DNA from: Mobula hypostoma | Lineage: Eukaryota | NCBI RefSeq assembly: GCF_963921235.1 | Contig: NC_086097.1 | Coordinates: 119,786,001-119,850,000, forward strand | Direction: 5' to 3' | DNA length: 64,000 bases | Shown here: piece after piece, positions 1 through 64,000 of the stretch | How positions within the stretch are numbered: position 1 is the stretch's first letter | Layout of the letters: the number at the start of each line of letters is the position of its first letter | The notes under the pieces: model-generated | The model's input: only the letters and a program-made list of their open reading frames with translations | Databases searched by the model: none | What the model was told of the DNA's origin: nothing | Made by a program: the position numbers and the translations under genes

Positions 1-1915
1 TTCTAGTAAATCTTCTCTGTACTCTCTCTATTTTGTTGACATCTTTCCTAAAATTTGGTGACCAGAACTGTACACAATACTCCAAATTTGGCCTTTCCAA
101 TGCCTTGTACAATTTTAACATAACATCCCAACTCCTGTACTCAAAGCTCTGATTTATAAAGGCCAGCACACCAAAAGTTTTCTTCGCCGTCCTATCCATA
201 TGAGATTCCACCTTCAGAGAATTATGCACCATTATTCCTAGATCCCTCTGTTCTACAGCATTCTTCAATGCCCTACCATTTACCATGTATGTTCTATTTT
301 GATTAGTCCTACCAAAATGTAGCACCTTACACTTATCAGCATTAAACTCTGTCTGCCATCTTTCAGCCCACTCTTCTAACTGGCCTAAATCTCTCTGCAA
401 GCTTTGAAAACCTGCTTCATTATCCACAATGTCACCTATCTTAGTATCATCTGCATACTTACTGATCCAATTTACCACCCCATCATCTGGATCATTAATG
501 TATATGACAAGCAACATTAGACCCAGTACAGATCCCTGAGGCACACCACAAGTCTCTGGCCTCCAACCTGACGAACAGTTGTCCACCACTACTCTCTGGC
601 ATCTCCCATCGAGACACTGCTGAATCCATTTTACTACTTCAATATTAATACCTGATGATTGAACCTTCCATGTGGAACCTTGTCAAAGGCCTTACTGAAG
701 TCCATATAGACAACATCCACTGCCTTACCCTCGTCAACTGTCCTAGTAACATCTTCAAAAAAATTCAATAAGATTTGTCAAACATAACCTTTCACACACA
801 AATCCATGTTGACTGTTCCTAATCAGACCCTGTCTATCTAGATAATTATATATACCATCTCTAAGAATACTTTCCATTAATTTACCCACCACTGACATCA
901 AACTTACAGGCCGATAATTGCTAGGTTTACTCTTTGAACCCTTTTTAAACAATGGAACAACTTGAGCAATACACTAATGCTCGGGCACCATTCCCGTTTC
1001 TAATGACATTTGAAATATTTCTGTCAGAGCCCCTGCTATTTCTACACTAACTTCCCACAAGGTCTTAGGGAATAAATATCCTGTCAGGACCCAGAGACTT
1101 ATCCACTTTTATATTCCTTAAAAGCACCAGTACTTCCTCTTCACTAATCATCATAGTTTCCATAACTTCCCTAATTGTTTCCCTTACCTTACATAATTCA
1201 ATATCCTTCTCCTTAGTGAATACCGAAGAAAAGAAATTGTTCAAAATCTCCCGCATCTCTTTAGGCTCCACACATAGCTGTCCACTCTGCTCTAAGGGAC
1301 CAATTTTATCCCTTACTATCCTTTTGCTATTAATATAACTGTAGAAACCCTTTGGATTTATTTTCACCTTACTTGCCAAAGCAACCTCGTATCTTCTTTT
1401 AGCTTTAATTTATTTCTTAAGATTCTTTTTACCTTCTTTATATTCCTCGAGCTCCTCATTTACTCCATGCTGCCTATATTTATTGTAGATATTTCTCTTT
1501 TTCTGAACCAAGTTTCCAATATCCCTTGAAAACTATGGCTCTCTCAAACTTTTAACCTTTCCTTTCAACCTAACAGGAACATAAAGATTTTGTACCCTCA
1601 AAATTTCACCTTTAAATGACCTCCATTTCTCTATTACATCCTTCCCATAAAACAATTTGTCCCAATCCACTCCTTCTAAATCCTTTCGCATCCCCTCAAA
1701 GTTAGCCTTTCTCCAATCAAAAATCTGGGTCCAGATCTATCCTTCTCCATAATTATATTGAAGCTAATGACATTGTGATCACTGGACTCGAGGTGCTCCC
1801 CAACACATACCTCCATCACCTGACCAATCTCATCCCCTAACAGGAGATCCAACACTGACCCTTCTCTAGTTGGTACCTCTATGTATTGCTGCACACATTT
1901 TACAAACTCCAAACC
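1..1915 (-). mobile_element. Degenerate CR1-clade LINE (older subfamily), ORF2 remnant, runs off window start
   Basis: Broken minus-strand ORFs 755-952, 1065-1379 and 1676-1912 with CR1 motifs NYRPVSL, QHGF, PTREGSVLDL, SDHN. Confidence 0.9.
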
Positions 1916-2220: not shown

Positions 2221-2303
2221 TTCTGAAATATAATTCTTCCACAGTCCGTTTGTTAATGAAAGTAATGGTAGCTTGGAAGTCCCTTCTTTAGTGATCTAAT
2301 AGG

Positions 2304-10517: not shown

Positions 10518-12431
10518 TGAAACATAGAAACATAGAAACATAGAAAATAGGTGCAGGAGTAGGCCATTCGGCCCTTCGAGCCTGCACCGCCATTTATTAT
10601 GATCATGGCTGATCATCCAACTCAGAACCCCACCCCAGCCTTCCCTCCATAACCCCTGATCCCCATAGCCACAAGGGCCATATCTAACTCACTCTTAAAT
10701 ATAGCCAATGAACCAGCCTCAACTGTTTCCTGTGGCAGAGAATTCCACAGATTCACCACTCTCTGTGTGAAAAAGTTTTTCCTAATCTCAGTCCTAAAAG
10801 GCTTCCCCTTTATCCTCAAACTGTGACCCTCGTTCTGGACTTCCCCAACATCGGGAACAATCTTCCTGCATCTAGCCTGTCCAATCCCTTTAGGATTTTA
10901 TACGTTTCAATCAGATCTCCCCTCAATCTTCTAAATTCCAACGAGTACAAGCCTAGTTCATCCAGTCTTTCTTCATATGAAAGTCCTGCCATCCCAGGAA
11001 TCAATCTGGTGAACCTTCTTTGTACTCCCTCTATGGAAAGGATGTCTTTCCTCAGATTAGGGGACCAAAACTGCACACAGTACTCCAGGTGTGATCTCAC
11101 CAAGGCCTTGTACAACTGCAGTAGTACCTCCCTGCTCCTGTACTCGATTCCTCTCGCTATAAATGCCAGCATACCATTTGCCTTTTTCACCACCTGCTGT
11201 ACCTGCATGCCCACTTTCAATGACTGGTGTATAATGACACCCAGGTCTCGTTGCACCTCCCCTTTTCCTAATCGGCCACCATTCAGATAATAATCTGTTT
11301 TCCTATTTTTGCCACCAAAGTGGATAACTTCACATTTATCCACATTAAATTGCATCTGCCATGAATTTGCCCACTCACCCAATCTATCCAAGTCACCCTG
11401 CATCCTCTTAGCATCCTCCTCACAGCTAACACTGCCGCCCAGCTTCGTGTCATCCGCAAACTTGGAGATGCTGCATTTAATTCCCTCATCCAAGTCATTA
11501 ATATATATTGTAAACAACTGGGGTCCCAGCACTGAGCCTTACGGTACCCCACTAGTTACTGCCTGCCATTCTGAAAAGGTCCCATTTATTCCCACTCTTT
11601 GCTTCCTGTCTGCTAACCAATTCTCTATCCACATCAATACCTCACCCCCAATACCGTGTGCTTTAAGTTTGCACACTAAGCTCCTATGTGGGACCTTGTC
11701 AAAAGCCTTTTGAAAATCCAAATATACCACATCTACTGGTTCTCCCCTATCCACTCTACGAGTTACATCCTCAAAAAATTCCATGAGATTCATCAGACAT
11801 GATTTTCCTTTCACAAATCCATGCTGACTTTGTCCGATGATTTCACTGCTTTCCAAATGTGCTGTTATCACATCTTTGATAACTGACTCCAGCAGTTTCC
11901 CCACCACCGACGTTAGGCTAACCGGTCTATAATTCCCCGGTTTCTCTCTCCCTCCTTTTTTAAAAAGTGTGGTTACATTAGCCACCCTCCAATCCTCAGG
12001 AACTAGTCCAGAATCTAACAAGTTTTGAAAAGTTATCACTAATGCATCCACTATTTCTTGGGCTACTTCCTCAAGCACTCTGGGATGCAGACCATCTGGC
12101 CCTGGGGTTTTATCTGCCTTTAATCCCTTCAATTTACCTAACACCACTTCCCTATTAACATGTATTTCGCTCAGTTCCTCCATCTCACTGGACCCTCTGT
12201 CCCCTACTATTTCTGGAAGATTATTTATGTCCTCCTTAGTAAAGACAGAACCGAAGTAATTATTCAATTGGTCTGCCATGTCCTTGCTCCCCATAATCAA
12301 TTCACCTGTTTCTATCTGAAGGGGACCTACATTTGTCTTTACCAGTCTTTTCCTTTTTACATATCTATAAAAGCTTTTACTGTCAGTTTTTATGTTCCCT
12401 GCCAGTTTACTCTCATAATCTTTTTTCCCCC
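10518..12431 (-). mobile_element. Young CR1 LINE copy 2, 5'-truncated, with nonsense and frameshift lesions
   Basis: (CATAGAAA)n tail at 10518-10547; split ORFs 11539-12300, 10816-11532 and 10622-10819. Confidence 0.97.
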
Positions 12432-12950
12432 TAGCACAACAGTTTCTTCAAAGACTGATGATGTTGGTGGCTGCACATCTGGGTGAGCAGAAGTTGATGG
12501 CACTGGATTTTGAAGTGTTAGCTCCCCTGTTGCACTTTTTCTCTCGCAATTTTTTGAACATGTCTTCCAAGGTAAGTTGTTTCATATTTTTTGGTCTCTC
12601 TCTGATTAGCTTATCTTACAGCATATAAGCACTCATTATTTCTTGCTCAGTTATAAACCATCATTGCTCTAATATTTTCAGCAATTCATGTGTCAACTTA
12701 ATTAGCCTGTCAATAGAAAGTCTCTCTGCTACAACTTCCTCAACTTCATCACTGCTTTCTCCTCCAATTTCTTCCTTCTCTGGATGTACAACCATCTGCA
12801 CAATTTCTGAGTCAGTATAATGATGAACAGTAGGCTCATCCTCATCTATATTCATCCATTCTTCAACATTGTCATCATTGAACCTTGATGCAAGATCCTT
12901 GGCAGCAAGATTAGTTAGCTCTTGAGCAAAAGAAAGCAGTTCATGTATCA

Positions 12951-13438: not shown

Positions 13439-16400
13439 TCTTTCTGTTCAAATATTTTTATTGTTATATTATACAGGAAAAATAACATGAGTACATAGAA
13501 GTGACAACACTTACAATGCCTCAAAAAAAACATTATCTTAAAGATTGAAAAAAAATTTGTGATAACAAAAAAAAACCTACTAAGCAGAAAAGTGAGAGAA
13601 AAAGAAAGAACCCATTAGGTGTACAACCCCGGAATCATGCGTCATACAAAAAGCTTCTAAAAATAAACATCAAACCACCAGCAAGAAATGAAAATATGCT
13701 AAAAAATTTACAATTAGATCATGGAAAAATATCAATTAACTCAAATGATAATAACGAGCAAATGAGCCCCATCTTTTCTCAATGTCAAATAAAGGTTGAA
13801 AGGTTCAACTTCTAATTTTCTCCAAACTAAGACATAGCATCACTTGAGAGAACCATTGTGACAAAGTGGGAGCTGATGTATCCTTCCACTTCAACAAAAT
13901 GGCCCTCCTAGCTATCAATGTAACAAATGCAATAATATGTTTGTCGGACACAGAAATACCATGAATATTTTGAGGAATTATTCCAAAAAGCACAGTTAAT
14001 TTATTAGGTTGTAATTTAATTTTAAGTGCTTTAGAAATTGTTGAAAAACCCAACTTCCAGACCTGTTCCAATATAGAACAAGACCAAAACATATGTGTCA
14101 GTGTATCTATCTCAGTTTTACATCTATCACAATGACTACCAACATTAGAAAAGATTTTAGAAAGTCTCTCCTTTGTCAAATGATAACAATGTACAATTTT
14201 AAATTGAATCAATGAATGGCTAACACAAATTGAAGAAGAGTTAACCAACTTCAATATCCGTATCCAATCCTCCGTCATAAAAGTCAAATTAAATTCCTTT
14301 TCCCAATCCTGTTTAATCTTAGATAAAGGATGCTTATCCTATTGTAATAATAAATTATAAATTATTCCAATAGAACCCTTAATCAAAGGATTCATACTCA
14401 TAATAGTATCTAACAGGTCAGCCTCCAATATGTAAGGAAAATTACTTAAATATTTTTTGTAAAAAATGTCTAAATTGAAGGTATTGCAGAAAGTGTGAGT
14501 ATGAAAGAGAATATTTATCAATTAATTGTTCAAAAGACATCAATCTATCTTCTTTAAATAAATCCAAAAAAGAATTAATACCTTTATTTTTCCAAAGTAA
14601 AAAAATTGGATCACACAAAGAAAGCTTTAAAAAGTAATTTCGGTAAATTAAACTACAAAGTTTAAATTTTTTAAGATTAAAAAAATTGCGGAATTGAAGC
14701 CAAATTTGTAAAGAATACTTAATCACAGGATATAAGTTTAAATTAACAACTTTAACTCATTGCATAGGTAAAGGAGCTCCCAATAACGAGGTTAAATAAA
14801 ACTGTTTTATAACTTTCAGTTCCAGGTCTACCCAAATTGGCCAATCACTCTTATCAACCCAGTATAACCAAAAAGACATATATCGCACATTAACAGCCCA
14901 ATAATACATTCTTAGATTAGGCAAAGCAAGACCTCCATCCTTTTTCAATTTTTGTAAGTAACATTTACTAATTCTTGGTCTTTTATCATTCCAAATAAAA
15001 GATAAAATAATAGAATCAATCCGATCAAAAAACTTCCTAGTCAAAAAAACCGGAATATTCTGAAATAAATATAAAAAATTCGGTAAAATCATCATTTTAA
15101 CTGTATGAATACGACCAACAAGTGAAAATGTAAGTGGACTCCATCTACTAAATAAATACTTCATAGAGTCTACTAAGGGAACAAAATTGGCTTTATAAAG
15201 ATCCTTATATTTTTTAGTAATTATCATACCTAGATATCTAAAAGAGTCTGTAACTTTCAAAGGAGTATTATCATATAGAGAGACAGAATCATTTAAAGGA
15301 AACAATTCACTTTTATTAAAATTTATTTTATATCCTGAAAAACTTCCAAATTCATTAAATAATTTTAGCAAGGCAGGAATGAATTTGTAAGGGTTAGATA
15401 TATAAACCAATAAATCATCAGTGTAAAGAGAAACCTTATGCATGGTCTCATTCACAAAAATCCCATTGATATTTTTAGCCTCACGAAGAGCAATAGCAAT
15501 AGGTTCTAATATTAAATTAAACAACAAAGGACTTAATGGACAGCCTTGCCTTGTCCCCCGTGAAAGCTGAAAAAAAGGAGACCTACAATTGTTAGTGACA
15601 ACAGTAGCAATAGGGGCTTTATATATCATTTTAATCCAATTATTAAAATTAGCACCAAAACCAAATTTCTCTAAAACATTGAATAAATATTTCCATTCGA
15701 CTTGGTCAAACGATTTTTCAGCATCCAAAGATACAACACATTGTGGAGTATTAAAAGAGGACGAATATATAATGTTAAATAGTCTCCGAACATTTGAAAA
15801 AGAATAGCGACCCTTTATAAAGCCTGTTTGGTCTTTAAAAATAATTTTACCCAAAATATTCTCCAACCGATTGGCCATTATCTTTGACAAAATCTTAGCG
15901 TCGACATTCAGTAATGAAATAGGTCTATATGAAGCACAGTCAGTAGGATCTTCATCTTTTTTAAGAATTAAAGAAATAGAAGCCTCATAAAAAGTAGTGG
16001 GTAAGTCACCTTTCACAAAAGAATCCTTAAACATTTCCAACATATACGAGAAAACAACTTTCCAAATTTTTTATAAAATTCTACAGGATAGCCATCAGGT
16101 CCTGGGGACTTAACAGATTGCACTGAAAAAATAGCTTTATGAATTTCGGCTTCAGTAATTTGACCATTGAGAGTTTTTTGATCCTCAGCCGAGATTTTAG
16201 GAAAAACAATCTTTCGTAAAAAAACATTCATTTCAGAGGAATCTACCGGACATTCAGATTTATAAAGCTCAGCATAAAAATCTTGAAAAATCTTATTAAT
16301 TTCTTCATATTCCTGAGCTAAGGTACCATCTTTCCTACGAATTTTCATGATTTGCCTTTTGGCTGCAGCCATTTTTAATTGAGATGCAAACAGTTTATTA

Positions 16401-17446
16401 TTTTTATCTCCAAAAATATAAAATTGGCTCTTTAACTTAAGCAAATATCCTTCAATGGGATGAGTTAATAACAGGTTATATTGTGATTGAAGTTCCACCC
16501 TCTGTTTAAATAAATCAGTATTGGGGGAAATTGCATAGGTATTATCTAAATCTTTAATTTGTTTTGAAATTCTATCTAACTCTGCTTTAGTTTGTTTTTT
16601 AAGTTTAGCTGAATAAGAAATAATCTGACAGGGCAGTCAGTAGCTTTGAATTCTATCGTAGATCACTTTGCTTTTTCGCGTTTCCGGGTGTGCGTGGGTG
16701 GGTTTAGAGTTAGGAGTTTTTTCCCATTGGGAGGTTCCAGAGCATGCATGCTTTTTATCTGGTTGTATTCTTCATCACCGGCATTTTTGATCATCCCGTA
16801 TTGGTATGTGCTCTGTGCATGTATAAAGTAGAATAAAATTATAGTATGGTATTTAAACGGATTAATATAAAAGTTGGAATGTACGTGGTTGGAATCATCC
16901 TATTAAACGAAAAAAGACTTTTAAAATTATAACCAATTCCAACCTAATATAATTTTTGCTCAAGAGACACATATCAGGGCGGGAGATCAAAATAGATTTT
17001 TTAGATGGTGGAATGGTTTGCAATTCCATTCTGCTTCTCAGAATAAAACAAAAAGCATGTCTATTTTTATTAAACCTAATATATTTATTCAAGAGGATAT
17101 TGAATCAGATTCTAATGGTAGATTTTTAATTGTTAAAGGAACAACCTGTAACAGAAAAGTTGTTTTGGTTAATTTGTTGTGGTCCTAACTTAGATGATCC
17201 TTTTTTTAAAAAGGTAATTGCTTTATTGCCTGATTTAAATGAATATGTGCTGATAATGGGTGGGGATTTTAATTGCTGCCTAAATCTTATGATTGATAAG
17301 AGCTCAACCAATCAGCGACTTCCAAATCAATCCGCGTCATTTATTAATTCCTTTTTGATTGATTTTGGGTTGATTGATTTGTGGCGGTATCTCCATCCGG
17401 ATAATAGAGAATATTCTTTCTTCTCACATGTTTATAAAAATTATTG
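13439..17446 (-). mobile_element. L1-clade LINE with inverted 5' segment
   Basis: Minus-strand RT ORFs (YRPISLLNVDAKI, SLDAEKSFD, GTRQGCPLSP, YTDD, C-terminal CDRC..H..WSC) at 13805-16625; plus-strand APE endonuclease remnant (SWNVRG..., MGGDFN, YSFFSH) at ~16870-17446; TSD ATTGTTTTTCTT at 13427-13438 and 17447-17458. Confidence 0.92.
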
Positions 17447-25850: not shown

Positions 25851-26076
25851 ACCACCCCCCTCCCACCACCACCTTTTGCACCTACTCTCTATCTTTTCTA
25901 AAACAATGAAACCCTGGAAAGATGGGACATCAAAATTCATAAAAATTGAAAGTTTACAGCATTTCCAACCATTAACTGGGGAGGAACAGAAAGACAATTA
26001 TTATTTCAAGAGCTCTTAACTGTATTTGCGGAAGCTCCTTAAATCATTTTACAGAAAATTCAATCAGAAAATTAGA

Positions 26077-27121
26077 TTCAGAATGGCAGGCGGTGACTAG
26101 TGGGGTACTGCAAGGCTCAGTGCTGGGACCCCAGTTGTTTACAATATATATTAATGACTTGGATGAGGGAATTAAATGCAGCATCTCCAAGTTTGCAGAT
26201 GACACGAAGCTGGGTGGCAGTGTTAGCAGTGAGGAGGATGCTAAGAGGATGCAGGGTGACTTGGATAGGTTGGGTGAGTGGGCAAACTCATGGCAGATGC
26301 AATTTAATGTGGATAAATGTGAAGTTATCCACTTTGGTGGCAAAAATAGGAAAACAGATTATTATCTGAATGGTGGCCGATTAGGAAAAGGGGAGGTGCA
26401 ACGAGACCTGGGTGTCATTATACACCAGTCATTGAAAGTGGGCATGCAGGTACAGCAGGCGGTGAAAAAGGCGAACGGTATGCTGGCATTTATAGCGAGA
26501 GGATTCGAGTACAGGAGCAGGGAGGTACTACTGCAGTTGTACAAGGCCTTGGTGAGACCACACCTGGAGTATTGTGTGCAGTTTTGGTCCCCTAATCTGA
26601 GGAAAGACATCTTTGCCATAGAGGGAGTACAAAGAAGGTTCACCAGATTGATTCCTGGGATGGCAGGTCTTTCATATGAAGAAAGACTGGATGAACTGGG
26701 CTTGTACTCGTTGGAATTTCGAAGATTGAGGGGGGATCTGATTGAAACGTATAAGATCCTAAAGGGATTGGACAGGCTAGATGTGGGAAGATTGTTCCCG
26801 ATGTTGGGGAGGTCCAGAACGAGGGGTCACAGTTTGAGGATAGAGGGGAAGCCTTTTAGGACCGAGATTAGGAAAAACTTCTTCACACAGCGAGTGGTGA
26901 ATCTGTGGAATTCTCTGCCACAGCAAACTGTTGAGGCCAGTTCATTGGCTATGTTTAAGAGGGAGTTAGATATGGCCCTTGTGGCTACAGGGGTCGGGGG
27001 GTATGGAGGGAAGGCTGGGTTCTGAGTTGGATGATCAGCCATGATCATAATAAATGGCGGTGCAGGCTCGAAGGGCCGAATGGCCTACTCCTGCACCTAT
27101 TTTCTATGTTTCTATGTTTCT
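26077..27121 (+). mobile_element. Young CR1 LINE copy 3, 5'-truncated, 8-bp TSD
   Basis: ORF 26093-27025 (RT C-terminal half); AAAATTAG at 26068-26075 and 27122-27129. Confidence 0.97.
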
Positions 27122-27347: not shown

Positions 27348-28158
27348 CTATATATGAGATATAGGCAAAGTAGGAAAGGGTCAGGACCAAGGTCATCAGT
27401 GTATGGAGTCAAAAATATGTATATAGCTATATAATTCCAAGCAAATACTTTATGTCTGACGAACAAAATAGGTGGCTGGACCAACATATGAACTGAAGGA
27501 GAAAGAATGAGAAATAGCAGATATGCAAACTTAGAGAAAGTGCAGACATAATATGTTGCCTAGCATATTTAAAAGACGATTTTCTTCCCAAAAGGTGAAA
27601 TATAGCACAAGTTGTTCAAATACTGTAGGCAAAGAAGGAAATAGCACAGAAGGTGGCCATCATTTTCCAACTACCTTTGACTGTAGAACAGTGTCCGCAG
27701 ACTTGAATTCTGTTAATATGGTACTATTCTTTAAAAAGATACCATATCAGAGTTAGCTTAATATTGGTGGTGAACATATAATTGAAAAACAAAATCTGCT
27801 GTGCTGTAGAAATGATCATTTACAAACATAGGCTAATCAGAGATGGCTTGTCATAGAGTCAAGGAACAACACATCATCAAGATTGGCCCTTCAGAATAAC
27901 TTCTCCAGTCTAACCAAATTGCCTAACTAAGATCATCCAATTTACCTGCAATTGGCCTATTTCCTTCTAGATCCTTCCTATCCAAAGTTAGTAAAGGGAA
28001 GGTTACAATTAACACACCTATATTGTTTTTGCTGAGATAATAAAGATGATCAATGACAGTTGCATGTATAATGTAGTCTAATGATTTTTAGAAAAGTTCA
28101 AATGGCAGGCTAATCAGATAATCATGAAACACCAGAAGAAGTGTCAGCTGGATCCAAA

Positions 28159-28373
28159 CATGAGGAAATCTGCAGATGCTGGAAATTCAAGCAACACTCA
28201 CAAAATGCTGCTAGAATGCAGCAGGCCAGGCAGCATCTATAGGAAGAAGTACAGTTGACGTTTCAGACCGAGACCCTTCATCCTGATAAAGGTCTCAGCC
28301 CAAAACGTTGACTCTACTTCTTCCTATAGATGCTGCCTGGCCTGCTGTGTTCTATCAGCATTTTATGTATGTT
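28159..28373. mobile_element. Fold-back pair of Penelope-like tails joined at the hammerhead core
   Basis: Inverted arms meet near 28282; decayed TSD AGCTGGATCCAAA / AGTTGGATTCAAA. Confidence 0.85.
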
Positions 28374-30341
28374 AGTTGGATTCAAAATTGGCTTAGCGAT
28401 TGGAAGGATGTGTGGAGGAATGTTCTGCTGGCTTTGAGTCAGGTAATATATAGCAAATATTCATGAATGATTAAAGTAAAAACAAAAGTTTTGGAATAAA
28501 AATAACAGGTTTGAAGATGATATCAAACAGGTGAAGCAGATGATAATAAGAAGTTCCTTTTAGGTTGTTGGAAGGTGTGAACAAAAAAATTAGATAAGGA
28601 AAGAAAGTGACAATTGATTTAATCTGTTGACAGATGAGGTAATCAATTTTGGCAGGACTGAGTTGGGAACAAAATATAAATGGAGAGCTATTAAACAGTG
28701 TAGAACCATAGAGATATCTTTGAGTGTATGTCCCTTGGGAAATGTTTTAAGAATAGGTCAACAAAACCCATGAAAAATAAATTTCACTCAACAAAAAGAA
28801 TTGATTTGCTAAAAATCTAATGCCATAGATATATCAAGAGCTGAGGGTATAACCACCTCTAAAGCAAACAAAAGTAAACAGTGAACATAGGCTATAAGTA
28901 AAAGGGAAAAGATTGAAAGTCATTTAAGAAGACAAGTTGACAATATGGTTGGAAGGCATTAAAGAATATTGATTTTTATTGACCAAGGCATAACATATTT
29001 TACCAGTTGATATCAACTCCAGTTAGCCACAGAGAGACAGCTGATTACAGTTCTGCTCACCAGGATGAGCTGTTCCACAGTGTTTTTTGGTTGTTTATAG
29101 ATAGGGTGATTAATGTATGCCAATGCTTCATCAGATGTTATTGGAACTTCGCAAGTATTGGGTGTAGTTTATATATGTATTAAGAACTCCTAGTTGCCAT
29201 GAATGTGGGACAGAAACAAATGCTTTTTGGTAGTCAATACAACAACTTGAAAGTTTTGTGCTTTTGAGCTGGGCTTGGTTTAGGATTACGGCATTTAATA
29301 TCAGTTGTTCTTTACATCCTATCATGCCCTTAAAGCATCTTTTCTGCTCTTCCGTAGGTACAAATATATTGTGGTTATCTAAGTGAGTGATGATTAGTTG
29401 TGAGATACATGATGTTACAATTTTCTATGTAGTTTGTTTACAAGTAAATCAATGTCATCTGTGGTTTCTCCTTTAGGTAAGAGGTATGTTTTACTTCCTG
29501 TCAAAAATTTGGGAACTTTTTCAGGATTTCTAAGAAAATTATTGTTATGTCCATAATACAGGTAGATAATTCCTTGAAAATGGTGTCACAGGTAGATAGG
29601 GTTGTAAAGAAAGCTTTTGGCACATTGGCCTTCATAAATCAAAGTATTGAGTACACGACAAACAACAGGAATTCTGCAGATGCTGGACATTCAAGCAACG
29701 CACATCAAAGTTGCTGGTGAACGCAGTAGGTCAGGCAGCATCTCTAGGAAGAGGTACAGTCAACGCTTCAGGCCGAGACCCTTCGTCAGGACGAACTGAA
29801 TGAAGAGTTAGTAAGAGATTTGAAAGTGGGAGGGGGAGGGGGAGATCCAAAATGATAGGAGAAGACGGGAGGGGGAGGGATGGAGCCAAGAGCTGGACAG
29901 GTGATTGGCAAAGGAGATATGAGAGGATCATGGGACAGGAGGCCCGGGGAGAAAGACAAGGGGAGGGGGAAACCCAGAGGATGGGCAAGGGCTATAGTCA
30001 GAGGGACAGAGGGAGAAAAAGGAGAGTGAGAGAAAGAATGTGTGTATAAAAATAAATAACGGATGGGGTACGAGGGGGAGGTGGGGCATTAGCGGAAGTT
30101 AGAGAGGTCAATGTTCATGCCATCAGGTTGGAGGCCAATCAGACGAAATATAAGGTGTTGTTCGTCCAACCTGAGTGTGGCTTCATCTTTACAGTAGAGG
30201 AGGCCGTGGATAGACATGTCAGAATGGGAATGGGATGTGGAATTAAAATGTGTAGCCACTGGGAGATCCCGCTTTCTCTGGCGGACAGAGCGTACGTGTT
30301 CAGCAAAGCGGTCTCCCAGTCTGCGTCGGGTCTCGACAATA

Positions 30342-30608
30342 TGTGGCCTTCTATATATTGGCGAGACACGACGCAGACTGGGAGACCGCTTTGCTGAACA
30401 CCTGTGCTCTGTCCGCCAGAGAAAGCAGGATCTCCCAGTGGCCACACATTTTAATTCCGCATCCCATTCCCATTCTGACATGTCTATCCACGGCCTCCTC
30501 TACTGTAAAGATGAAGCCACACTCAGGCTGGAGGAACAACATGTTATATTCCATCTGGGTAGCCTCCAACCTGATGGCATGAACATTGACTTCTCTAACT
30601 TCCACTAA
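30342..30608 (+). pseudogene. Penelope-like GIY-YIG endonuclease C-terminal remnant
   Basis: CGLLYIGETRRRLGDRFAEH...VATHFN...RLEEQHVIFHLGSLQPDGMN. Confidence 0.88.
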
Positions 30609-30903
30609 TGCCCCACCTCCCCCTTGTAGCCCATCCATTATTTATTTTTATACACACATTCTTTCTCTCACTCTCCTTTTTCTCCCTCTGTCCCTTTGAC
30701 TATACCCCTTGCCCATCCTCTGGGTTTCCCCCTCCCCTTGTCTTTCTCCCCGGGCCTCCTGTCCCATGATCCTCTCATATCCCCTTTGCCAATCACCTGT
30801 CCAGCTCTTGGCTCCATCCCTCCCCCTCCTGTCTTCGCCTATCATTTTGGATCTCCCCCTCCCCCTCCCACTTTCAAATCTCTTACTAACTCTTCCTTCA
30901 GTT

Positions 30904-30939
30904 AGTCCTGACGAAGGGTCTCGGCCTGAAACGTCGACT
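30904..30939 (+). ncRNA. Minimal type I hammerhead ribozyme
   Basis: AGTC-CTGACGA-AGG(GTCTCGG)CCT-GAAA-CGTC-GACT: stem I AGTC/GACT, full core, palindromic ACGT stem III, predicted cleavage after C30935. Confidence 0.82.
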
Positions 30940-31033
30940 GTACCTCTTCCTAGAGATGCTGCCTGGCCTGCTGCGTTCACCAGCAACTTTGATGTGTGTT
31001 TATTGAGTACAAGAGATGTTATGTTGAAATTGA

Positions 31034-33596
31034 TTTTTTTTTTAATTTTTTATTTTTATTTGGATAAGGAATTTACAAGTATCATGAACTTTTTTCACAT
31101 GTATAACCTTTTCCATTTTTTTATATGTGTATAAAACTATAATTATTTATACATTCCTAAGTACACATTAAGATGATATGAAACGAAATTAGAGACTTAA
31201 GTAGATAATTATGTGCAGTTGAAATCCTACTCTATTAGGCTAAGTAATGATATTAGTTGTTAAGAAAAATAATAATAATAGTGGATTAATAATAATTTCC
31301 ATATATCTCTTCTGGACCATTTCTTTCTGGCCCAAAATGTTGTATGTAAGCCTATGTAACTACCATTGTAGGTGTTTATATCCTAACTTGTTCATGTTTG
31401 CTCCTCCCCCCAAACATAATTATCCAATCCCTATGTACTTATTTCCTTAATTTTATCATTTTTTATCTCTTTCCCAAATCTTTTCCTTTACTTGTGTTAA
31501 TTCTCCATTTTCCAAAAAAAGAAAACAAGAACAGTAAACATTCAGACCAGGGGTGCTTACGTTAGCAATATTACTGTGTTGATGAGAAGAGCAGTATAAA
31601 TCATTAGGAGAGTCATCTAAAGTCTGCTGGCTTTGGGGTTATATATTCAATCCATTTATTCCAAATTTGATAAAATTTTTCTTTTTGAATTCTCAGAGAG
31701 TAAGTCATCTTTTCCATTTTAAATATTTCCAAGATAATTTCGTGCCAATCTTCTGATGTAGGTGGTATTGGATTTAGCCACTTTCTCGTGATTGATTTCT
31801 TACTTGCTGCTGAAAGGGCCTGCAGCAACTTTATATCTTTCTTCTGTTCAAGAAACAATACATGTCTCAAAGTTCAGAGGTATCTGGGTCTTAAGTACCT
31901 TAACTAATGTTCTGTGAATATCTTTTCAATATAAACTTAATTTAGGGCAATCCCAGAAAATATGGAAATGATTTGCCTCCTTGGAGCCGCACCTTCTCCA
32001 ACACGTCACGTTTGTGTCTTTATATTTTACCTGATATGGGGTCCCGAAGTATCTTATAATATTTTTCTAACAATGTTCTCTCCAAGTCAAAGAGTTAGTC
32101 GAAGACCACTGAAAGCTGCATGTTTTCCCCCAAGCCTCCTCTGAACGTACCAACCCTGCTTCTTTCTCCCACTTCTCTTTAATATACAATGTGTTTACAT
32201 TTTTAGCATGGGAGAGTGCATTTTATAATCGAGAAACTGATTTACTTGGTATTGAACTGCAAGCCGAATTCAGAATCTTGAAAAATTCTAATTCTACTGT
32301 TGATAGGTCTGTATATCTACAACTCTGGTTCACATAGTGTCGTACTTGAAGGTACCTAAAAAAGTCATTGTGTTCTAGGCCATGTTTGTCCTGCAGGAAC
32401 TGGAAACTTTGTAATACTCTTTTATGTATAAATGAGAGGTAGGTTGTAAGACCTTTCTTTATCCATAGTTCAAATCTTTTATCTCCTCTGTTGGGAAAGA
32501 ATTCAGTATCATATGCACACCATCTGAAAAGTTTTAACATGTTATTGATTCCACATGAATTAACCACCTTCTGCCATACTTTTAATGTAAGATTTATCCA
32601 GCTGTTTCTAAACTTTTCCAATTGGGCCATCAATCCTTTATCTGCTATTGAGGCCTGTAGAGGAAAACTGTCAACTAATCCAAATTCTATTTCCTTCCAT
32701 CTAGCCTTATATTCCCTATTACACCAATATAACAGGGGGGTTGTCTGTGAAGCATAGAAATAATTTCTCAAGCAAGGAAGTACCATACCTCCTCCTTCCT
32801 TCCCTAACTGTAAGGTGTTATATCAAATTCTAGGTTTCTTTCCTTGCCAGATAAAGCGGGATATCCATTTGTCTCATTCCCTGAATTGATTATCATCCAC
32901 CTCCACGGGTAAAGTCCGGAAAAGATAGAGTGACCGAGGGAGAATATTCATTTTTATGGTATTTATCCTTGAATTTAAACTTAAAAAGGGGATAAGATTC
33001 CATCTATGCATATCTGCTTTTATCTCTGAAATTAATGGCCCATAATTTACCTGTGGCAGCGTTGAAAGATCCTTCGGCAGGGTTATTCCTAAATATTTTA
33101 ATGATTTAGCTTCCCACTTAAGATCACATGTATCCTGTAGTTTTTTGGATGGCGTATAATTTAGGGACATAACCTGCGTTTTCTTTACGTTTATTTTATA
33201 ACCTGATATTTTCTCAAAGTCATCCAACAGTGTAAACAATCCTATAAATGATTTTTCTGGTTCACTCAGATAGACTGAAACATCATCTGTGAATAACGCC
33301 ACTTTCTGTTCAATCCCTGCCACCTTGATACCTTTTACAATTTTGCTCCATCTTATTAGTTGGGCAAGCGGTTCAATGTATAGCGCAAAAAGGAGAGGAG
33401 AAATTGGGCATCCCTGTCTAGTGCCTCTCTCTAAAATAAAGGAGTCAGAGAGGTCCCCATTTATCTTAATTCGAGCTGTAAGGCTGTCATGTAAAGTTTG
33501 GACTACTTTAATAAACTTTTCTTGAAAGCCGAATCTTCCTAACACTCTGTATAGTAATGCCCAACTAACTGAATCAAAAGCTTTCTCAGCGTCTAA
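31034..33596 (-). mobile_element. L1-clade LINE, 5'-truncated, 16-bp TSD
   Basis: T-rich tail at 31034; ORFs with GTRQGCPISP, LFTDD, KYLGI; GTTATGTTGAAATTGA at 31018-31033 and 33597-33612. Confidence 0.92.
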
Positions 33597-34133
33597 GTTA
33601 TGTTGAAATTGAAAAAAAAAAAGTGTTGGTGAGGCCTAATTTGGAGTATTTTCTGCAGTTTTGGTCACCTATTTACAGGAAAGATGTAAACAAATTTGAA
33701 AGAGTGAAGAGAAAACTTACACAGATGTTGCTGGACCTGGAAGACAAGAGTTATAAGGAGAGATTAAATAGGTTGGGGCTGTACTATTTAGAATGTAGAA
33801 GACTGAGAAGAGGTTTGATAGAGGTATACAAAATTATGAGGGGTAAAGATAGGGTAAATGCAAGCAGGCTTTTTCCACTGAGGTTGGGTAGGACTACAAC
33901 CAGAGGTCGTGGGTTAAGGATGAAAGGTGAGTAAGTTAAGGGGAACATGAGGGGAAACTTCTTCACTTAGAGGGTTGTCAGAGTGTGAATTGAGCTGCTA
34001 GCACAAGTGGTGCATGCGAGCTTGATTTCAAGATTTAAGATAAGTTTGGATAGGTACATGGATAGTAGGTGTATGAAGGGTATGGTCTTGGTGAAGGTTT
34101 ATGGGAGTAGGCAGTTTAAATGGTTTTGGCATG

Positions 34134-34640
34134 TTCACATTCCCATTTGGATATATCCATGCATGGCCTCCTCTACTGCCATGATGAGACTAAACTCAGG
34201 TTGGAGGAGCAACACCTCATATACCGTCTGGTAAATCTTCAGCCCCTTGGTATGAACATTGAACTCTCCAAATTCCAGCAATTCCCTCCCTCTCCCTTCC
34301 CCTATTCAAGTTTCACTCTCCCCCCCCTCAGCTGCCTACTACCTCCCTCATGGTTTTGCCTCCTTCTACTACCCATTGTGTTTTCCCCTATTCCTTCTTC
34401 ACCTTTCCTGCCTATCCCCTCCCTGCTTCCCCTCCCCCACCCCTTTATATTTCCCCTTACTGGTTTTTCACCTGGAACCTTCCAGCCTTTTCCTTCCCAC
34501 CCTTCCCCCACCTTCTTTATAGGGCCTCAGCCCCTTCCCTCTTCAGTCCTGACGAAGGGTTCCAGCCCGAAACGTTGACTGATCATTTCCACGGATGCTG
34601 CCTGACCTCCTGAGCTCCTCCAGCGTGTTGTGAGTGTTGC
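34134..34640 (+). mobile_element. Penelope-like 3' fragment (second subfamily), 9-bp TSD
   Basis: SHSHLDISMHGLLYCHDETKLRLEEQHLIYRL; TTTGGCATG at 34125-34133 and 34641-34649. Confidence 0.9.
34543..34582 (+). ncRNA. Minimal type I hammerhead ribozyme (variant)
   Basis: TCAGTC-CTGACGA-A-GGG(TTCCAG)CCC-GAAA-CGTT-GACTGA; 6-bp stem I, GUU cleavage triplet. Confidence 0.8.
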
Positions 34641-37429: not shown

Positions 37430-38470
37430 ATCAGATTTATCACCATATCCATTTACATGTATTCAAAATTTGCTGTGGTGTTTTGGCGCAATTGAACCAA
37501 AAACATTCAACACTTATAAAGAATAAACTATTAAATAAACCAGGGAGTTAGATGTTGAAGTATGGAAATAAAAAAATGTGCATAAATACATAAATGTCAG
37601 CATGTATTTAGAATGTAAACAGCATTTTAAAAAGTGTTCTAAAGTGTTTACAGTGCAGTGACTGACATGATAGAGAGAGGGTGGAAGGGGGTGGTAAATG
37701 GAATAGTTGATAAGATTAACTACCTGGGAAAAGGAACTTTTAAGATGGCGTCCAATCACAAACAAGAGAAAATCTGAAGATGCTAGAAGTCCAAGCCAAA
37801 CACTCAAAACGCTGGGACTCAGCAGGTCAGGCAGCATCTATGGGAGAGAGGAAACAATCGATGTTTTTGGCCAAGATATCCTGATGAATGGTCTCAGCCT
37901 GAAACACTGACTGTTTACTCCTTTCCATAGATGCTGTCTGGCCTGCTGTGTTATTCCAGCATTTTGTGTATGTTGTTTAAGATGGTGTGAAGTTTTTGTT
38001 TTAACAGGCCTATAGTGCTTTCCAGATAGGAGCTTTTGGAAAAGGCAGTATACAGGTGGGTAGTGTCTACAATGATTCCACCTGCAGCCAATGACCTTTT
38101 CTACTGACCTGACAGTTCACTGCAGTTTCCATATATTGTGAGAGAACGCTGCACCAAACCAGACAGTAATGTCTGATGTGACGATTTTCTCCATGATGGT
38201 GGTGTAGAATTGCACAAGATTGTTCTGGGGAAGAAGGAATTTTACCAACTGCTGCAAGAAGCAGTGATGTGCCTTTTTGTTAATGGAGGAGAAATGGTTC
38301 TCTCACTTGAACTCCTGCAAAATAATGATGCCCAGGAACATGAATGTTGAAATGGTGCTCACTGTCGGGTTGTTGATGAGTGGGTGGAGAGGAGACACAG
38401 TTCTTCTGAGGTTGATATGCATCTTCATGGCTTTGAGGGCATTCAGCTCCAATCTGCATGGTGTTAGAGC
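37430..38470 (-). mobile_element. REX1/L2-like LINE 3' fragment
   Basis: Minus-strand ATTACTGTCTGGTTTGG (ITVWFG); FFSQVVNL remnant. Confidence 0.55.
37752..37975. mobile_element. Fold-back pair of Penelope-like tails joined at the hammerhead core, 13-bp TSD
   Basis: Junction near 37880 (ATC|CTGATGA); TTTAAGATGGCGT at 37739-37751 and TTTAAGATGGTGT at 37976-37988. Confidence 0.85.
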
Positions 38471-40554: not shown

Positions 40555-41240
40555 TTTTAGATTTAGATTATGAGGACACTCAGTCCTTGTTTACTGTCAT
40601 TTAGAAATGCATGCATGCATTAAGAAATAATACAATGTTCCTCCAGAGTGATATCACAAAAAAACAAGACAAACCAAAGACTAACACTGACAAGACCACA
40701 TAATTACAACATATAGTTACAGCAGTGCAAAGCAATCCCGTAATTTGATAAAGAACAGACCATGGGAACTGTAAAAAAAAGTCTCAAAGTTCCGATCGAC
40801 TCCTGATAGTCCCCGATAGCAGGCGGCAAAAGGGAGAACCTCTCTCTGCCATAAACCACCAGGCACCGACAACTGTTGATGCATTGGAAGCACCCGACCA
40901 CAGCCGACTCTGAGTCTGTCCAAAAACTTCGATACTGACCAGCCCTTCGACACCGAGCACCGAGCGCCATCTCTGCCGAGTGCTTCGACCCCATCCCGGC
41001 TGCTGAGCAACAAGCAAAGCCAAGGATTCGGGGCCTTCACCTCCGGAGATTCTGGATCACACAGTAACAGCGGCAGCGAAAAAGACATTTCAGAAGTTTC
41101 TCCAGATGTTCCTCCGTTCTCTCACATCTGTCTCCATCAAATCAGGATTGTGCACGGCACCCTACTTGACAGATCACAGATACCATTCACCGCAGTGGCC
41201 GCGCAAGCTGCGTCGTGCCACCATCTTCTCCTCCTCCTTG
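40555..41240 (-). mobile_element. CpG-rich non-autonomous retroelement with LINE-type tail
   Basis: Minus strand starts GGAGGAGAAGATGGTGGC and ends ...ATCTAAATCTAAA; many intact CpGs; no credible ORF. Confidence 0.6.
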
Positions 41241-42364
41241 CCTACTAGCTCTTGCCTAGTAATTTTCTGTTGTTTTACCTTCCGTTTTGAAGATTTGTAT
41301 TCCATTTCATCATTGGTATTCAGGAGGGTATTTCCACAGCTCTTCGTACTGCAGAGTCATGTGGTGTTCTTGTATTTTCCCAATTAGAAAGTAACCACAG
41401 ATGCGTTTTTCCAGGGGCTGTTTTGCATCCACTTCTTTGATCTGATGTTCGAGTTTCGGGAGATCACATACATCGAAAAATTGAGATCTACAGTCCCAAA
41501 TTGCTCAACCACGTTCTGTATATTGAGACTATTTCCAGACAAAGTGCATGAAAAAATGGTCCATTAAACACTATAATTGCAGTGAGGATGCTGAAAGAGT
41601 TAAAGAATATAACTAAATTTCCTCGGTAGCTCTCATCTGCTCCATTATAAATTCACCTGAAATGTGGTGGTGTAATTCATGTTTATGAGCTCAAATGAAA
41701 CACATCTCCCAGTGAAGCTGCAGGTGGACAGAGGCAGAAATTCAGCAGAATTTTACCGAGATTTGCTCCAGTCCATACATTATAACATGAAATCAGCATA
41801 GATTTTGACATGTCATCAGTCAAAATGCCATCAGTGCCAAGAGTAGTTGATTGTTCCAAAACTTTAATAAAACTATAAGAATTTTTGAGTTTAACTTACC
41901 ATTGTAACATTATAATAGATTTAACACCAATGTGCAGAGTGCGGGGAGATTGTTAGATTGATAACCTTGTCAGTGTTAAAATTTATAACTCTTCAAAAAC
42001 CACCTTAAATCTGTGGGATAATTACTGCTTCCAACATTTACTTTGAAGTCCATGATGGATTTCTGAATCTCACTGTCACGTTAAATCATTGTTTGATATA
42101 AGCTCTACCATAGCTTTGCTACAGGCAAAAAACCAAAATAACTTATGCTAATACAATTTCATATTGAATATGTACAGACCTTCATGATCATGTCCTATCC
42201 AGGCTTTAGTATAGATTTTCACATTAGCTCTTTGACCACCTAACGTCAGGCAGGAGGTACTGTAGGTTTATACCAGCTTTATACATTTGAATTTATACTA
42301 GATGCATTTACAGTTACAATTAACTCATAAAACATTGCGTCTTTGAGATATAGGAACAAACTTG

Positions 42365-47100: not shown

Positions 47101-47813
47101 ACACCCACGCCAGGAGGTGGGAGAAGAAAGGATCAATTGCTTGGCCAATGGGAGATCCCCTATTTCAGTGTTATAAACTGGAAAAGTGCTCTTGAGTGAG
47201 TATTGGCATGAAGGAAACAGTGGAATTCATGTTCTAAGTTGTTGGCCTAGGGTCAACATAGTTATGTTGTTGTTTGTGCAGAGACAGTAACGTGTGAGCA
47301 TCAATTAACTGAGAGTTGCATAATGAGTCTCCTAACCCTGGTTCCATTGATGAATGCTCAACAATTGTTTGTGTCTCGAAAAAGTACATTGATCAAGTGC
47401 TCTCTGTCACAGTCCTTTAAACCCAGGATAGGCTACCTTCGGCACCCCAGCATCCAATGGGCTCGCGGATTTGAAGACAACAGGCTTCCAACTTTCCCAA
47501 TGGACTTATAGACCCAGGGCTTCAGCCATTGTCTTGACTTCCAAGAATGGTGGTGATAAATGGGTCCATGCTCTCATAGAACATAGAACAGTACAGCACA
47601 ATACAGGCCCTTCAGCCCACAATTTTGTGCCGATCCTTAAACCCTGCCTCCCATATAATGCCCCCCCCCACCTTAAATTCCTCCATATACCTGTCTAGTA
47701 GTTTCTTAAATTCCATGAGTGTATCTGCCTACACCACTGACTCAGGCAGTGCATTCCATGCACCAACCACTCTCTGAGTAAAAAACCTTCCTCTAATTCC
47801 TATAATTTGCTTT

Positions 47814-49598
47814 AGGTGAATTGATTATGGGGAGCAAGGACATGGCAGACCAATTGAATAATTACTTTGGTTCTGTCTTCACTAAGGAGGACATAAATAA
47901 TCTCCCAGAAATAGTAAGGGACAGAGGGTCCAGTGAGATGGTGGAACTGAGCGAAATACATGTTAGTAGGGAAGTGGTGTTAGGTAAATTGAAGGGATTG
48001 AAGGCAGATAAATCCCCGGGGCCAGATGGTCTGCATTCTAGAGTGCTTAAGGAAGTAGCCCAAGAAATACTGGATGCATTAGTGATAATTTTTCAAAACT
48101 CGTTAGATTCTGGACTAGTTCCTGAGGATTGGAGGGTGGCTAATGTAACCCCACTTTTTAAAAAAGGAGGGAGAGAGAAACCGGGGAATTATAGACCGGT
48201 TAGCCTAACGTCGGTGGTGGGGAAACTGCTGGAGTCAGTTATCAAGGATGTGATAACAGCACATTTGGAAAGCGGTGAAATCATCGGACAAAGTCAGCAT
48301 GGATTTGTGAAAAGAAAATCATGTCTGACGAATCTCATAGAATTTTTTGAGGATGTAACTAGTAGAGTGGATAGGGGAGAACCAGTGGATGTGGTATATT
48401 TGGATTTTCAAAAGGCTTTTGACAAGGTCCCACACAGGAGATTAGTGTGCAAACTTAAAGCACACGGTATTGGGGGTAAGGTATTGGTGTGGGTGGAGAA
48501 TTGGTTAGCAGACAGGAAGCAAAGAGTGGGAATAAACAGGACCTTTTCAGAATGGCAGGCGGTGACTAGTGGGGTACCGCAAGGCTCGGTGCTGGGACCC
48601 CAGTTGTTTACAATATATATTAATGACTTGGATGAGGGAATTAAATACAGCATCTCCAAGTTTGCGGATGACACGAAGCTGGGTGGCAGTGTTAGCAGTG
48701 AGGAGGATGCTAAGAGGATGCAGGGTGACTTGGATAGGTTGGGTGAGTAGGCAAATTCATGGCAGATGCAATTTAATGTGGATAAATGTGAAGTTATCCA
48801 CTTTGGTGGCAAAAATAGGAAAACAGATTATTATCTGAATGGTGGCCGATTAGGAAAAGGGGAGGTGCAACGAGACCTGGGTGTCATTATACACCAGTCA
48901 TTGAAAGTGGGCATGCAGGTACAGCAGGCGGTGAAAAAGGCGAATGGTATGCTGGCATTTATAGCGAGAGGATTCGAGTACAGGAGCAGGGAGGTACTAC
49001 TGCAGTTGTACAAGGCCTTGGTGAGACCACACCTGGAGTATTGTGTGCAGTTTTGGTCCCCTAATCTGAGGAAAGACATCTTTGCCATAGAGGGAGTACA
49101 AAGAAGGTTCACCAGATTGATTCCTGGGATGGCAGGACTTTCATATGAAGAAAGACTGGATGAACTGGGCTTGTACTCGTTGGAATTTAGAAGATTGAGG
49201 GGGGATCTGATTGAAACGTATAAGATCCTAAAGGGATTGGACAGGCTAGATGCAGGAAGATTGTTCCTGATGTTGGGGAAGTCCAGAATGAGGGGTCACA
49301 GTTTGAGGATAGAGGGGAAGCCTTTTAGGACCGAGATTAGGAAAATCTTCTTCACACAGAGAGTGGTGAATCTGTGGAATTCTCTGCCTCAGGAAACAGT
49401 TGAGGCCAGTTCATTGGCTATATTTAAGAGGGAGTTAGATATGGCCCTTGTGGCTACGGGGGTCAGGGGGTATGGAGGGAAGGCTGGGGCGGGGTTCTGA
49501 GTTGGATGATCAGCCATGATCATAATAAATGGCGATGCAGGCTCGAAGGGCCATATGGCCTACTCCTGCACCTATTTTCTATGTTTCTATGTTTCTAT
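47814..49598 (+). mobile_element. Young CR1 LINE copy 4, 5'-truncated, with one nonsense change
   Basis: ORFs 47821-48750 and 48766-49500 separated by TGG>TAG at 48748-48750. Confidence 0.97.
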
Positions 49599-53847: not shown

Positions 53848-54111
53848 TTGAGAAAAAGGACCGCAAAGGTAGTAATCTCGGGATTACTGCCTGTGCCACG
53901 CGACAGTGAGAGTAGGAATGCGATGAGGTGGAGGATAAATGCGTGGCTGAGGGATTGGAGCAGGGGGCAGGGATTCAAGTTTTTGGATCATTGGGACCTC
54001 TTTTGGCGCAGGCGTGACCTGTACAAAAAGGACGGGTTACACTTGAATCCTAGGGGGACCAATATCCTGGCAGGGAGATTAGCGGGGGCTACTGAGGTGA
54101 CTTTAAAATAG
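53848..54111 (+). pseudogene. CR1 ORF1 C-terminal SGNH esterase-like domain
   Basis: VVISGLLP...INAWLRDW...YKKDGLHLNPRG (DxxH motif typical of CR1/L2 ORF1 esterase domains). Confidence 0.82.
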
Positions 54112-55079
54112 AATGGTTGGTGGGTGGGAATCAAATTAAAGAGGCTAGGCGTGAGGAGGTTAGTTCACAACAGAGGGATGGGAACCAGTGCAGAGAGACA
54201 GAGGGGTGTAAAGTGAGCGTAGAAGCAAAAAGTACTAAGGAGAAAAGTAAAAGTGGCAGGCCAACAAATCCAGGGCAAGCATTAAAAAGGGCCACTTTTC
54301 AACATAATTGTATAAGGGCTAAGAGAGTTGTAAAAGAGCGCCTGAAGGCTTTATGTGTCAATGCAAGGAGCATTCGTAATAAGGTGGATGAATTGAAAGT
54401 GCAGATTGTTATTAATGATTATGATATAGTTGGGATCACAGAGACATGGCTCCAGGGTGACCAGGGATGGGAGCTCAACGTTCAGGGATATTCAATATTC
54501 AGGAGGGATAGACATGAAGGAAGGGGAGGTGGGGTGGCGTTGCTGGTTAAAGAAGAGATTAACGCAATAGAAAGGAAGGACATAAGCCGGGAAGATGTGG
54601 AATCGATATGGGTAGAGCTGCGTAACACTAAGGGGCAGAAGACGCTGGTGGGAGTTGTGTACAGGCCACCTAACAGTAGTAGTGAGGTCGGAGATGGTAT
54701 TAAACAGGAAATTAGAAATGTGTGCAATAAAGGAACAGCAGTTGTAATGGGTGACTTCAATCTACATGTAGACTGGGTGAACCAAATTGGTAAAGGTGCT
54801 GAGGAAGAGGATTTCTTGGAATGTATGCGGGATGGTTTTTTGAACCAACATGTCGAGGAACCAACTAGAGAGCAGGCTATTCTGGACTGGGTTTTGAGCA
54901 ATGAGGAAGGGTTAATTAGCGATCTTGTCGTGAGAGGCCCCTTGGGTAAGAGTGACCATAATATGGTGGAATTCTTCATTAAGATGGAGAGTGACATAGT
55001 TAATTCAGAAACAAAGGTTCTGAACTTAAAGAGGGGTAACTTTGAAGGTATGAGACGTGAATTAGCTAAGATAGACTGA
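54096..55079 (+). pseudogene. CR1 ORF2 apurinic-like endonuclease domain, ends at a premature TGA
   Basis: NARSIRNK, GITETW, VYRPP, MGDFN, SDHN; TGG>TGA at 55077-55079. Confidence 0.9.
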
Positions 55080-63588: not shown

Positions 63589-64000
63589 GTGTACATACAT
63601 CTATTGATGCTTCTGGACACATCTTCAGTGATGTTCCTGGAATCATCGGGTGTTTCGGGTCTTTCAACATCATACAACCTACTCCAGGTGACCCAGCCGG
63701 AGCTGATCAGACCCCAGCTTGTGTCCAGATGGCTAGCTACTTATGACTCCATGGCTCCCCTCTTTTGAGCCACAGCCATCTTGAGGCCCTCTCTGCCACA
63801 TCGGTGGTACTGCGGATGGCTCTCCTCTTCCTCTCTCCCTCGATGCCCAAAACGCTGAAGGCTCTAACTAAAGAATGGGCTATGAATCCCCTACAACCAA
63901 CCTCCACTGGGAGACACCTCGCTCTCCATCCAGCCTGCTGACAGTTGCTGACCAGTCCTGCGTACTTGGAGAGCTTCCTTTCAAAGGCCTCCTCCAAGCT
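63589..64000 (-). mobile_element. HERO-like (restriction-endonuclease) non-LTR retrotransposon 3' end, runs off window
   Basis: EEAFERKLSKY..L...CQQAGW....PVEVGCRGF....AERASRWLWLKR, followed by a ~150-nt 3'UTR. Confidence 0.78.

Follow-up and report, generated by a model that had tools for sequence, protein, structure and literature searches.

The locus and its insertion

The window, i.e., the whole 64,000-nucleotide stretch of Mobula hypostoma DNA analysed here, carries at 30904-30939 of the plus strand a hammerhead-like motif, all 36 bases of which were found by a sequence check exactly as written in a preliminary description. The motif belongs to one of the two arms of an insertion of 1.35 kb, which are joined head to head and flanked by a target duplication of 11 bp (Table 1); the presence of this duplication on both sides indicates that the pair of arms represents one insertion. 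The interrupted frame is assigned to a LINE on the basis of its resemblance to other LINE frames of the window. All offsets given here refer to the predicted cut, with 30936 as 0; the plus arm has its short 3' end at about +65 to +71. The plus and minus arms differ by 34 mismatches (12 C/T, 11 A/G and 11 CpG-type), among which no A-to-G editing was seen. As the motif of the minus arm is without A15.1 and lies on the opposite strand, the motif at 30904 has no tandem partner at the locus.

The stop codon of the GIY-YIG frame (30606-30608) is situated 295 bases 5' of the motif, in good agreement with the distance of about 300 nt given earlier. Directly upstream, 30884..30908 (+) contains what we take to be a candidate splice acceptor, comprising a branch-point-like heptamer, a pyrimidine tract and a pair of YAG sites that run up to helix I; additionally, an initiator-like YYANWYY, presumably a candidate start site, is present near 30904, with its A being the first base of helix I. 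Downstream, by analogy with an anole element (PMC11167929), the conserved leader likely holds one reverse-transcription start site.

Table 1. Features of the insertion and of the second intact hammerhead copy in the window
Feature	Position	Strand	Remarks
Target-site duplication, left copy, 11 bp	29645..29655	+	within older LINE RT-like frame
Minus arm of the insertion	29656..30342	-	long 3' end at about +103; 94.7% identical to plus arm
Minus-arm hammerhead	about 29760-29795	-	A15.1 changed
Plus arm, 5'-truncated Penelope-like copy	30341..31000	+	GIY-YIG frame end, pyrimidine-rich UTR, hammerhead, short 3' end
GIY-YIG endonuclease frame, C-terminal part and stop codon	30348..30608	+	PF01541 E=0.019, below cut-off
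Minimal type I hammerhead	30904..30939	+	helix I of 4 bp (5 with U-G), core, extra A, helix II, loopless palindromic helix III
Helix I, 5' strand	30904-30907	+	
Core CUGACGA	30908-30914	+	
Core GAAA	30928-30931	+	
Palindromic ACGU, helix III	30931-30934	+	
C17	30935	+	predicted cut between 30935 and 30936
Helix I, 3' strand	30936-30939	+	
Conserved downstream leader with short 3' end of copies	30940..31000	+	candidate reverse-transcription start
Target-site duplication, right copy, 11 bp	31001..31011	+	
GIY-YIG remnant upstream of second hammerhead	34135-34278		
Second intact hammerhead, older subfamily	34545..34580	+	G10.1-C11.1, GUU site; found by descriptor

Elsewhere in the window, the regions 2295-4514, 10816-12447, 25976-27025, 47806-49500, 54096-56550 and 60090-62330 hold several young copies of what we take to be one CR1/L2-like LINE family, with RT frames of up to 739 codons, while 13805-16636, 32223-33635, 58839-59594 and 62232-63746 presumably represent other LINE fragments of L1/Tx1-like and RTE-like type. 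Ser/Pro-rich open frames on both strands of 40717-41387 could possibly derive from a host exon.

Structure of the hammerhead motif

The 30904-30939 motif contains the complete core (C3-U4-G5-A6-N7-G8-A9, G12-A13-A14, A15.1-U16.1 and H17). A structure descriptor requiring this core, a helix II of 3 or more bp, a helix I of 4 or more bp and a UH site was applied to 1.064 Mb (100 evenly spaced 10-kb stretches and the window), and returned 29 matches, while each of 10 dinucleotide shuffles yielded 0-1; hence, the full hammerhead structure is not a product of chance, although the bare CUGANGA...GAAA pattern is weak on its own (13 versus 8.3 expected). Together with the position check, this bears out the earlier reading of a complete hammerhead. 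The palindrome at 15.2-16.2 is preserved in 20 of the 29 matches, the others showing single CpG-type changes. The Rfam scan proposed as a check yielded 8 matches at E up to 10, none of which was to a hammerhead family. The further identification as a Penelope-like minimal type I hammerhead with ACGU as palindromic stem III fits both the published class and the placement of the motif at both ends of the parent element (see below).

The preliminary description had assigned a 3-bp stem II, a register that is probably wrong on the predicted energetics. The better register has an extra A followed by GGGU/cucg/GCCU, i.e., 4 bp with a G10.1-U11.1 wobble, and is RNAfold's choice for the 30904 motif. 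The computed helix II energies are -6.0 kcal/mol with 4 bp and the extra A versus -4.6 kcal/mol with 3 bp for the 30904 copy, and -7.9 versus -3.9 kcal/mol for the 34545 copy. Copies with C at 11.1 are compatible only with the extra-A register, and 27 of the 29 descriptor matches use an extra base between 9 and 10.1. The wobble is found in the 30904 copy and the youngest subfamilies, whereas older subfamilies have G10.1-C11.1, a pair which is highly conserved, if not invariant, in minimal PLE hammerheads (PMC4209133); the available text of PMC544870 and PMC2837043 supplied no rate for G10.1-U11.1.

Secondary structure prediction suggests that the 30904 monomer would fold into an inactive rod, in which G5-G8 are paired to the cut site (-10.0); for the dimer, the active form is estimated at -9.5 versus -18.2 for the rod, on secondary structure alone. 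Fold z-scores of the motif did not reach significance. The predicted preference for the rod fits the weak cleavage of minimal PLE hammerheads, reported as low dimer activity in vitro (PMC4209133), and the behaviour of an anole PLE, which cleaves only with the element's protein (PMC11167929).

All ten sites listed earlier as intact or decayed hammerheads are indeed copies of the repeat, but eight cannot form the motif and only those at 30904 and 34545 pass the descriptor and are intact. By eye, the copies at 1935, 13050, 19385 and 44065 are interrupted inside helix I or the core, that at 29775 has A15.1 changed, and those at 6930, 28270 and 37880 are decayed. Two short, decayed palindromic insertions occupy 28155-28382 and 37759-37978; in each, two stubs meet head to head around the front half of the motif, one of their 3' ends being long and the other short.

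The parent element

A search of the 3.48-Gb genome with the endonuclease piece gave 170,567 first-look candidates and 150 scored matches at 94-100% identity, of which 20 of those with the longest frames were retrieved. In near-full elements, one hammerhead precedes and one follows the RT-GIY-YIG frame, i.e., both pseudo-LTRs carry it: in one element (L031), motifs at 3033 and 6549 flank a 1064-codon open frame, and in another (L032) there is one at each side of a 1,041-codon frame. The long frame has its conserved Met 138 bases 3' of the cut site. Thus, the "Penelope-like tail" of the preliminary description, while correctly placed 3' of the GIY-YIG frame, is also the 5' leader of the ORF.

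The ORF gives RVT_1 and GIY-YIG profile matches, each below curated cut-offs, and displays a YIDD motif, a CX4CXXC linker at residue 883 and a pair of cysteines within the GIY-YIG domain; a search of solved structures with this ORF returned no match. Further traits of EN+ PLEs are present, namely pseudo-LTRs, an inverted 5' copy, a 30-40-base tail at one end and a single ORF combining RT with a C-terminal GIY-YIG domain. A CX2-5CXXC linker between RT and EN is described for Neptune and Nematis, with Penelope/Poseidon being without it (PMC8557442). On sequence grounds, this motif marks the parent as a putative Neptune or Nematis element and not a Penelope/Poseidon one. Uninterrupted PLE frames of 1,010-1,064 codons (L031:3055-6249, L034:3095-6226, L032:3751-6876 and L033:3306-6338) are a pointer to recent activity. 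The N-terminal third of these frames includes a pyrimidine/proline-rich low-complexity stretch.

Copy number, subfamilies and decay

The central 34 bases of the motif have 41,517 exact genomic copies (control 0), which, along with the 29 descriptor matches per 1.064 Mb, substantiates the claim that the repeat scatters hammerhead motifs. Random sequence contains 18 intact palindromic motifs per Mb, for which scaling up gives roughly 60,000, and 59 of 87 long young copies have an intact motif. By hand count, C11.1 is present in 16 of the 100 first-listed matches of the central 34 bases. In the youngest two marker classes, 51/56 and 44/48 copies have U11.1, and the CA partner that decay of a CpG would have yielded is absent; the older marker class has 48 U, 32 C and 3 CA. 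The C11.1 to U replacement is the single subfamily-level change within the motif.

Excess conservation of the motif across copies, which had been put forward as a check, is not seen in a gapped test of 77 long young copies, the selection of which ignored the motif: rare changes number 25 in 36 motif columns versus 107 in 129 others (p=0.46), and subfamily-level variants affect 1/36 motif columns versus 12/129 others (p=0.30), with 0/11 in the core. This does not refute the motif, as no such excess is expected for dead, neutrally decaying copies. An ungapped version of the test had suggested conservation at p=6e-7 and was rejected as an artefact of flank indels and truncations. Changes at CpG sites are alike inside and outside the motif (51/696 versus 13/174, p=1.0). 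No compensatory pair changes were found in the helices among the sampled subfamilies, which share nearly identical motifs and hence offer little occasion for them; divergent PLE families with covarying motifs did not appear in the 1.064-Mb sample, which held close subfamilies only. The dispersed copies are passengers decaying neutrally.

Where copies begin and end

The 5' ends were mapped in a tail-anchored set of 94 distinct copies, selected solely by an exact match to a downstream 35-mer (90 loci among the 100 places listed first, on one contig), and in a random-sample set of 49 young copies out of 106 matches. Ends at -41..-18 account for 29/94 of the former, among the matches listed, and 20/49 of the latter, as compared with 3/94 (again among the matches listed) and 1/49 at the cut ±3. 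The front-edge bin has a rate of 1.87 ends per 100 bases versus 26 ends in 5,688 for the remaining near bins (p=3e-7), a comparison in which the bin was chosen post hoc, some ends were hand-corrected and internal jumps were included. Genome-wide, probes demanding five mismatched upstream bases detected 1,014 junctions at -31, 70 at -8, 303 at 0, 126 at +1, 175 at +4 and 63 at +12, these being unnormalised counts with microhomology-driven joints in each. The 303 junctions at the cut exceed the 63-175 at neighbouring positions, and 43 of the 100 first-listed ones are helix-I or GAC microhomology rearrangements (hand count). Inserted copies thus nearly always retain sequence 5' of the cut site. 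As 5' ends gather at the front edge of the motif and few lie at the cut, the insertion templates were mainly uncut RNA, with a small share of copies possibly coming from cut RNA.

Recurrent rearranged motifs were also observed in the same genome, in which the core is either inverted between the two helix I strands or lost through GAC microhomology. One junction at -8 recurs in about 25 of 70 matches, perhaps reflecting an amplified ribozyme-less variant.

The 3' ends of copies fall at either +57..78 or +100..105, and all 40 head-to-head pairings join one long with one short end (49% expected), even though four of the 40 are probably false and reuse an arm. Paired arms bear the same subfamily markers in 27/33 cases (30% expected). 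This pattern matches the one-sided tail described in PMC8557442, as well as the nicking of both strands and the two internal start sites seen for the anole PLE in vitro (PMC11167929).

Interpretation and alternatives

The best explanation of the whole, to which we give a probability of about 0.8, is that the motif is a minimal type I hammerhead of an abundant Neptune-like Penelope retroelement, located in a dead, 5'-truncated copy, with its cutting predicted to depend on a dimer or on protein. From the positions of the ends, the element RNA would begin near the first base of helix I, and the element protein would nick both target strands and use two priming sites, located about 65 and 103 bases beyond the cut, on that RNA or on a sister molecule. 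The stubs of 90-140 bases could then stem from priming close to the RNA 5' end. Cleavage might slowly trim tandem or read-through RNA in a gated manner, parting the 5' end from the ORF, and would be dispensable for insertion.

A more specific version can be offered only tentatively: the RNA would start at the first ribozyme base, and a dimeric protein would prime one RNA twice (long and short, on opposite target strands), giving stubs and palindromes from uncut RNA. The hammerhead would then be a gated off-switch severing the 5' end from the ORF and not a maturation step, the top subfamilies would have spread after its weakening (C11.1 to U), and the identical motifs, present in tens of thousands, could dimerise in trans between host transcripts. 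The initiator-like element lends weak support to an RNA start at helix I, since the 330 bases upstream contain YYANWYY 7 times; of three near-full elements, two reach 260-275 bases beyond the motif on its 5' side, which counts against a start at this point.

The front-edge pile-up might instead reflect a block to reverse transcription, whereby the cDNA, once helix I has been copied, would adopt a rod of its own and either fall off or snap back. In favour of this are the strong inverted-repeat character of the motif, the fold-back joints of helix I that make up 30 of the 100 first-listed junctions at the cut (hand count), and the inverted partners of 14 of 26 hot-zone ends. However, the solo stubs L205, L213, L223 and L230 start at -31 right after the target duplication, snap-back would not impose the long and short 3' ends found in 40/40 pairings, and over half of the copies pass the motif (49/94 end beyond -41, among the matches listed), making such a block possible but not probable. 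It is likewise doubtful that, after the precedent of Drosophila virilis Penelope (PMC4209133), an intron in the pseudo-LTR ends at helix I and has the pyrimidine tract and YAG as its 3' splice site, with splicing remodelling helix I and switching the ribozyme. The branch-point-like heptamer, tract and CAG/TAG at 30884-30905, the retention of tract and CAG in older subfamilies, and four donor-like sites 577-656 bases upstream are consistent with this proposal. Against it, the heptamer differs between subfamilies, no intron-less genomic copy was seen, and no GT..AG joint occurs there among the 15 joints listed for each of two sets (which comprise 515 and 30 further joints, respectively) from contigs of related organisms, whose status as RNA is a guess.

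Another reading, which we consider rather unlikely, is that the ribozyme of the youngest and most successful subfamilies is weakened or vestigial, its sequence being kept for its overlap with a start site and a protein-binding leader. It draws on the fixation of U11.1 in place of the conserved G10.1-C11.1, the predicted preference for the inactive rod, the lack of excess conservation, the success of PLE clades without a hammerhead (PMC8557442) and the normal insertion of ribozyme mutants in vitro (PMC11167929). Yet G-U is still a pair, 11 of 11 core columns are free of subfamily-level change, and the core is common by majority to four hand-sorted subfamily groups whose bases just 3' of it differ. 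Finally, the density of intact palindromic motifs (18 per Mb) and their persistence in 59/87 long young copies might evoke a host-selected network of self-cleaving switches in transcripts. Such a network in bulk is disfavoured and very improbable, given that CpG changes are alike inside and outside the motif, that conservation shows no excess, and that the 30904 copy sits inside a LINE remnant.

Comparison with known systems

This class of hammerhead has been in print since 2014, and hence the locus by itself is ordinary. Like the minimal hammerheads of metazoan PLEs (Cervera and de la Pena 2014, PMC4209133), including those reported from Xena, Poseidon and Neptune elements of fishes, the 30904 motif is of type I with a short helix I, an extra base 9/10.1 and a loopless palindromic 15.2-16.2, and it occurs in both pseudo-LTRs and mostly solo in truncated copies. 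Unlike them, it has U11.1 in the youngest subfamilies; its helix II has 4 bp as compared with 7-8 in schistosome motifs, its sequence variety is low as opposed to extreme, and one variant alone has 41,517 exact copies versus motif totals of about 4,000 in the coelacanth and 9,000 in Xenopus obtained by another method. The available text of that paper names no shark or ray, though its supplements may hold such motifs. Our literature search likewise brought up no specific shark or ray case and no front-edge clustering in the texts available; the work of Lunse, Weinberg and Breaker on PLE hammerhead dimer cleavage may list the family.

Non-LTR retrozymes, for which one chondrichthyan genome is positive (bioRxiv 10.64898/2026.07.22.740005), share a type I hammerhead derived from PLE pseudo-LTRs. 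They form head-to-tail arrays of ORF-less units, whereas at the present locus two copies lie head to head, endonuclease coding sequence is present and each strand has at most one intact motif, and the assignment to retrozymes was therefore rejected. The Neptune/Nematis-type EN+ PLE units (Craig et al. 2021, PMC8557442) are closer, sharing 5' truncation, partial tandems, an adjacent inverted copy, a tail often at one end only and a Zn-finger-like linker motif; the helix-I clustering of 5' ends and the strict long/short rule seen here are not reported in the available text of that study.

The green anole Poseidon element PAc (Frangieh et al. 2024, PMC11167929) differs in that its ORF begins inside helix II, as against a Met 138 bases past the cut here, and Penelope/Poseidon elements are without the CX2-5CXXC linker present in the ray element. 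PAc has in common with the latter two 3' ends 30-40 bases apart just past the hammerhead, and an uncut RNA template with no ends at the cut site. The ray family, in which more than 40,000 motifs are identical and there are near-intact ORFs, provides a large natural record of insertion products, together with a comparison of C11.1 and U11.1 and a defined candidate RNA start, and this record agrees with the anole result in vitro that uncut RNA is the template (PMC11167929).
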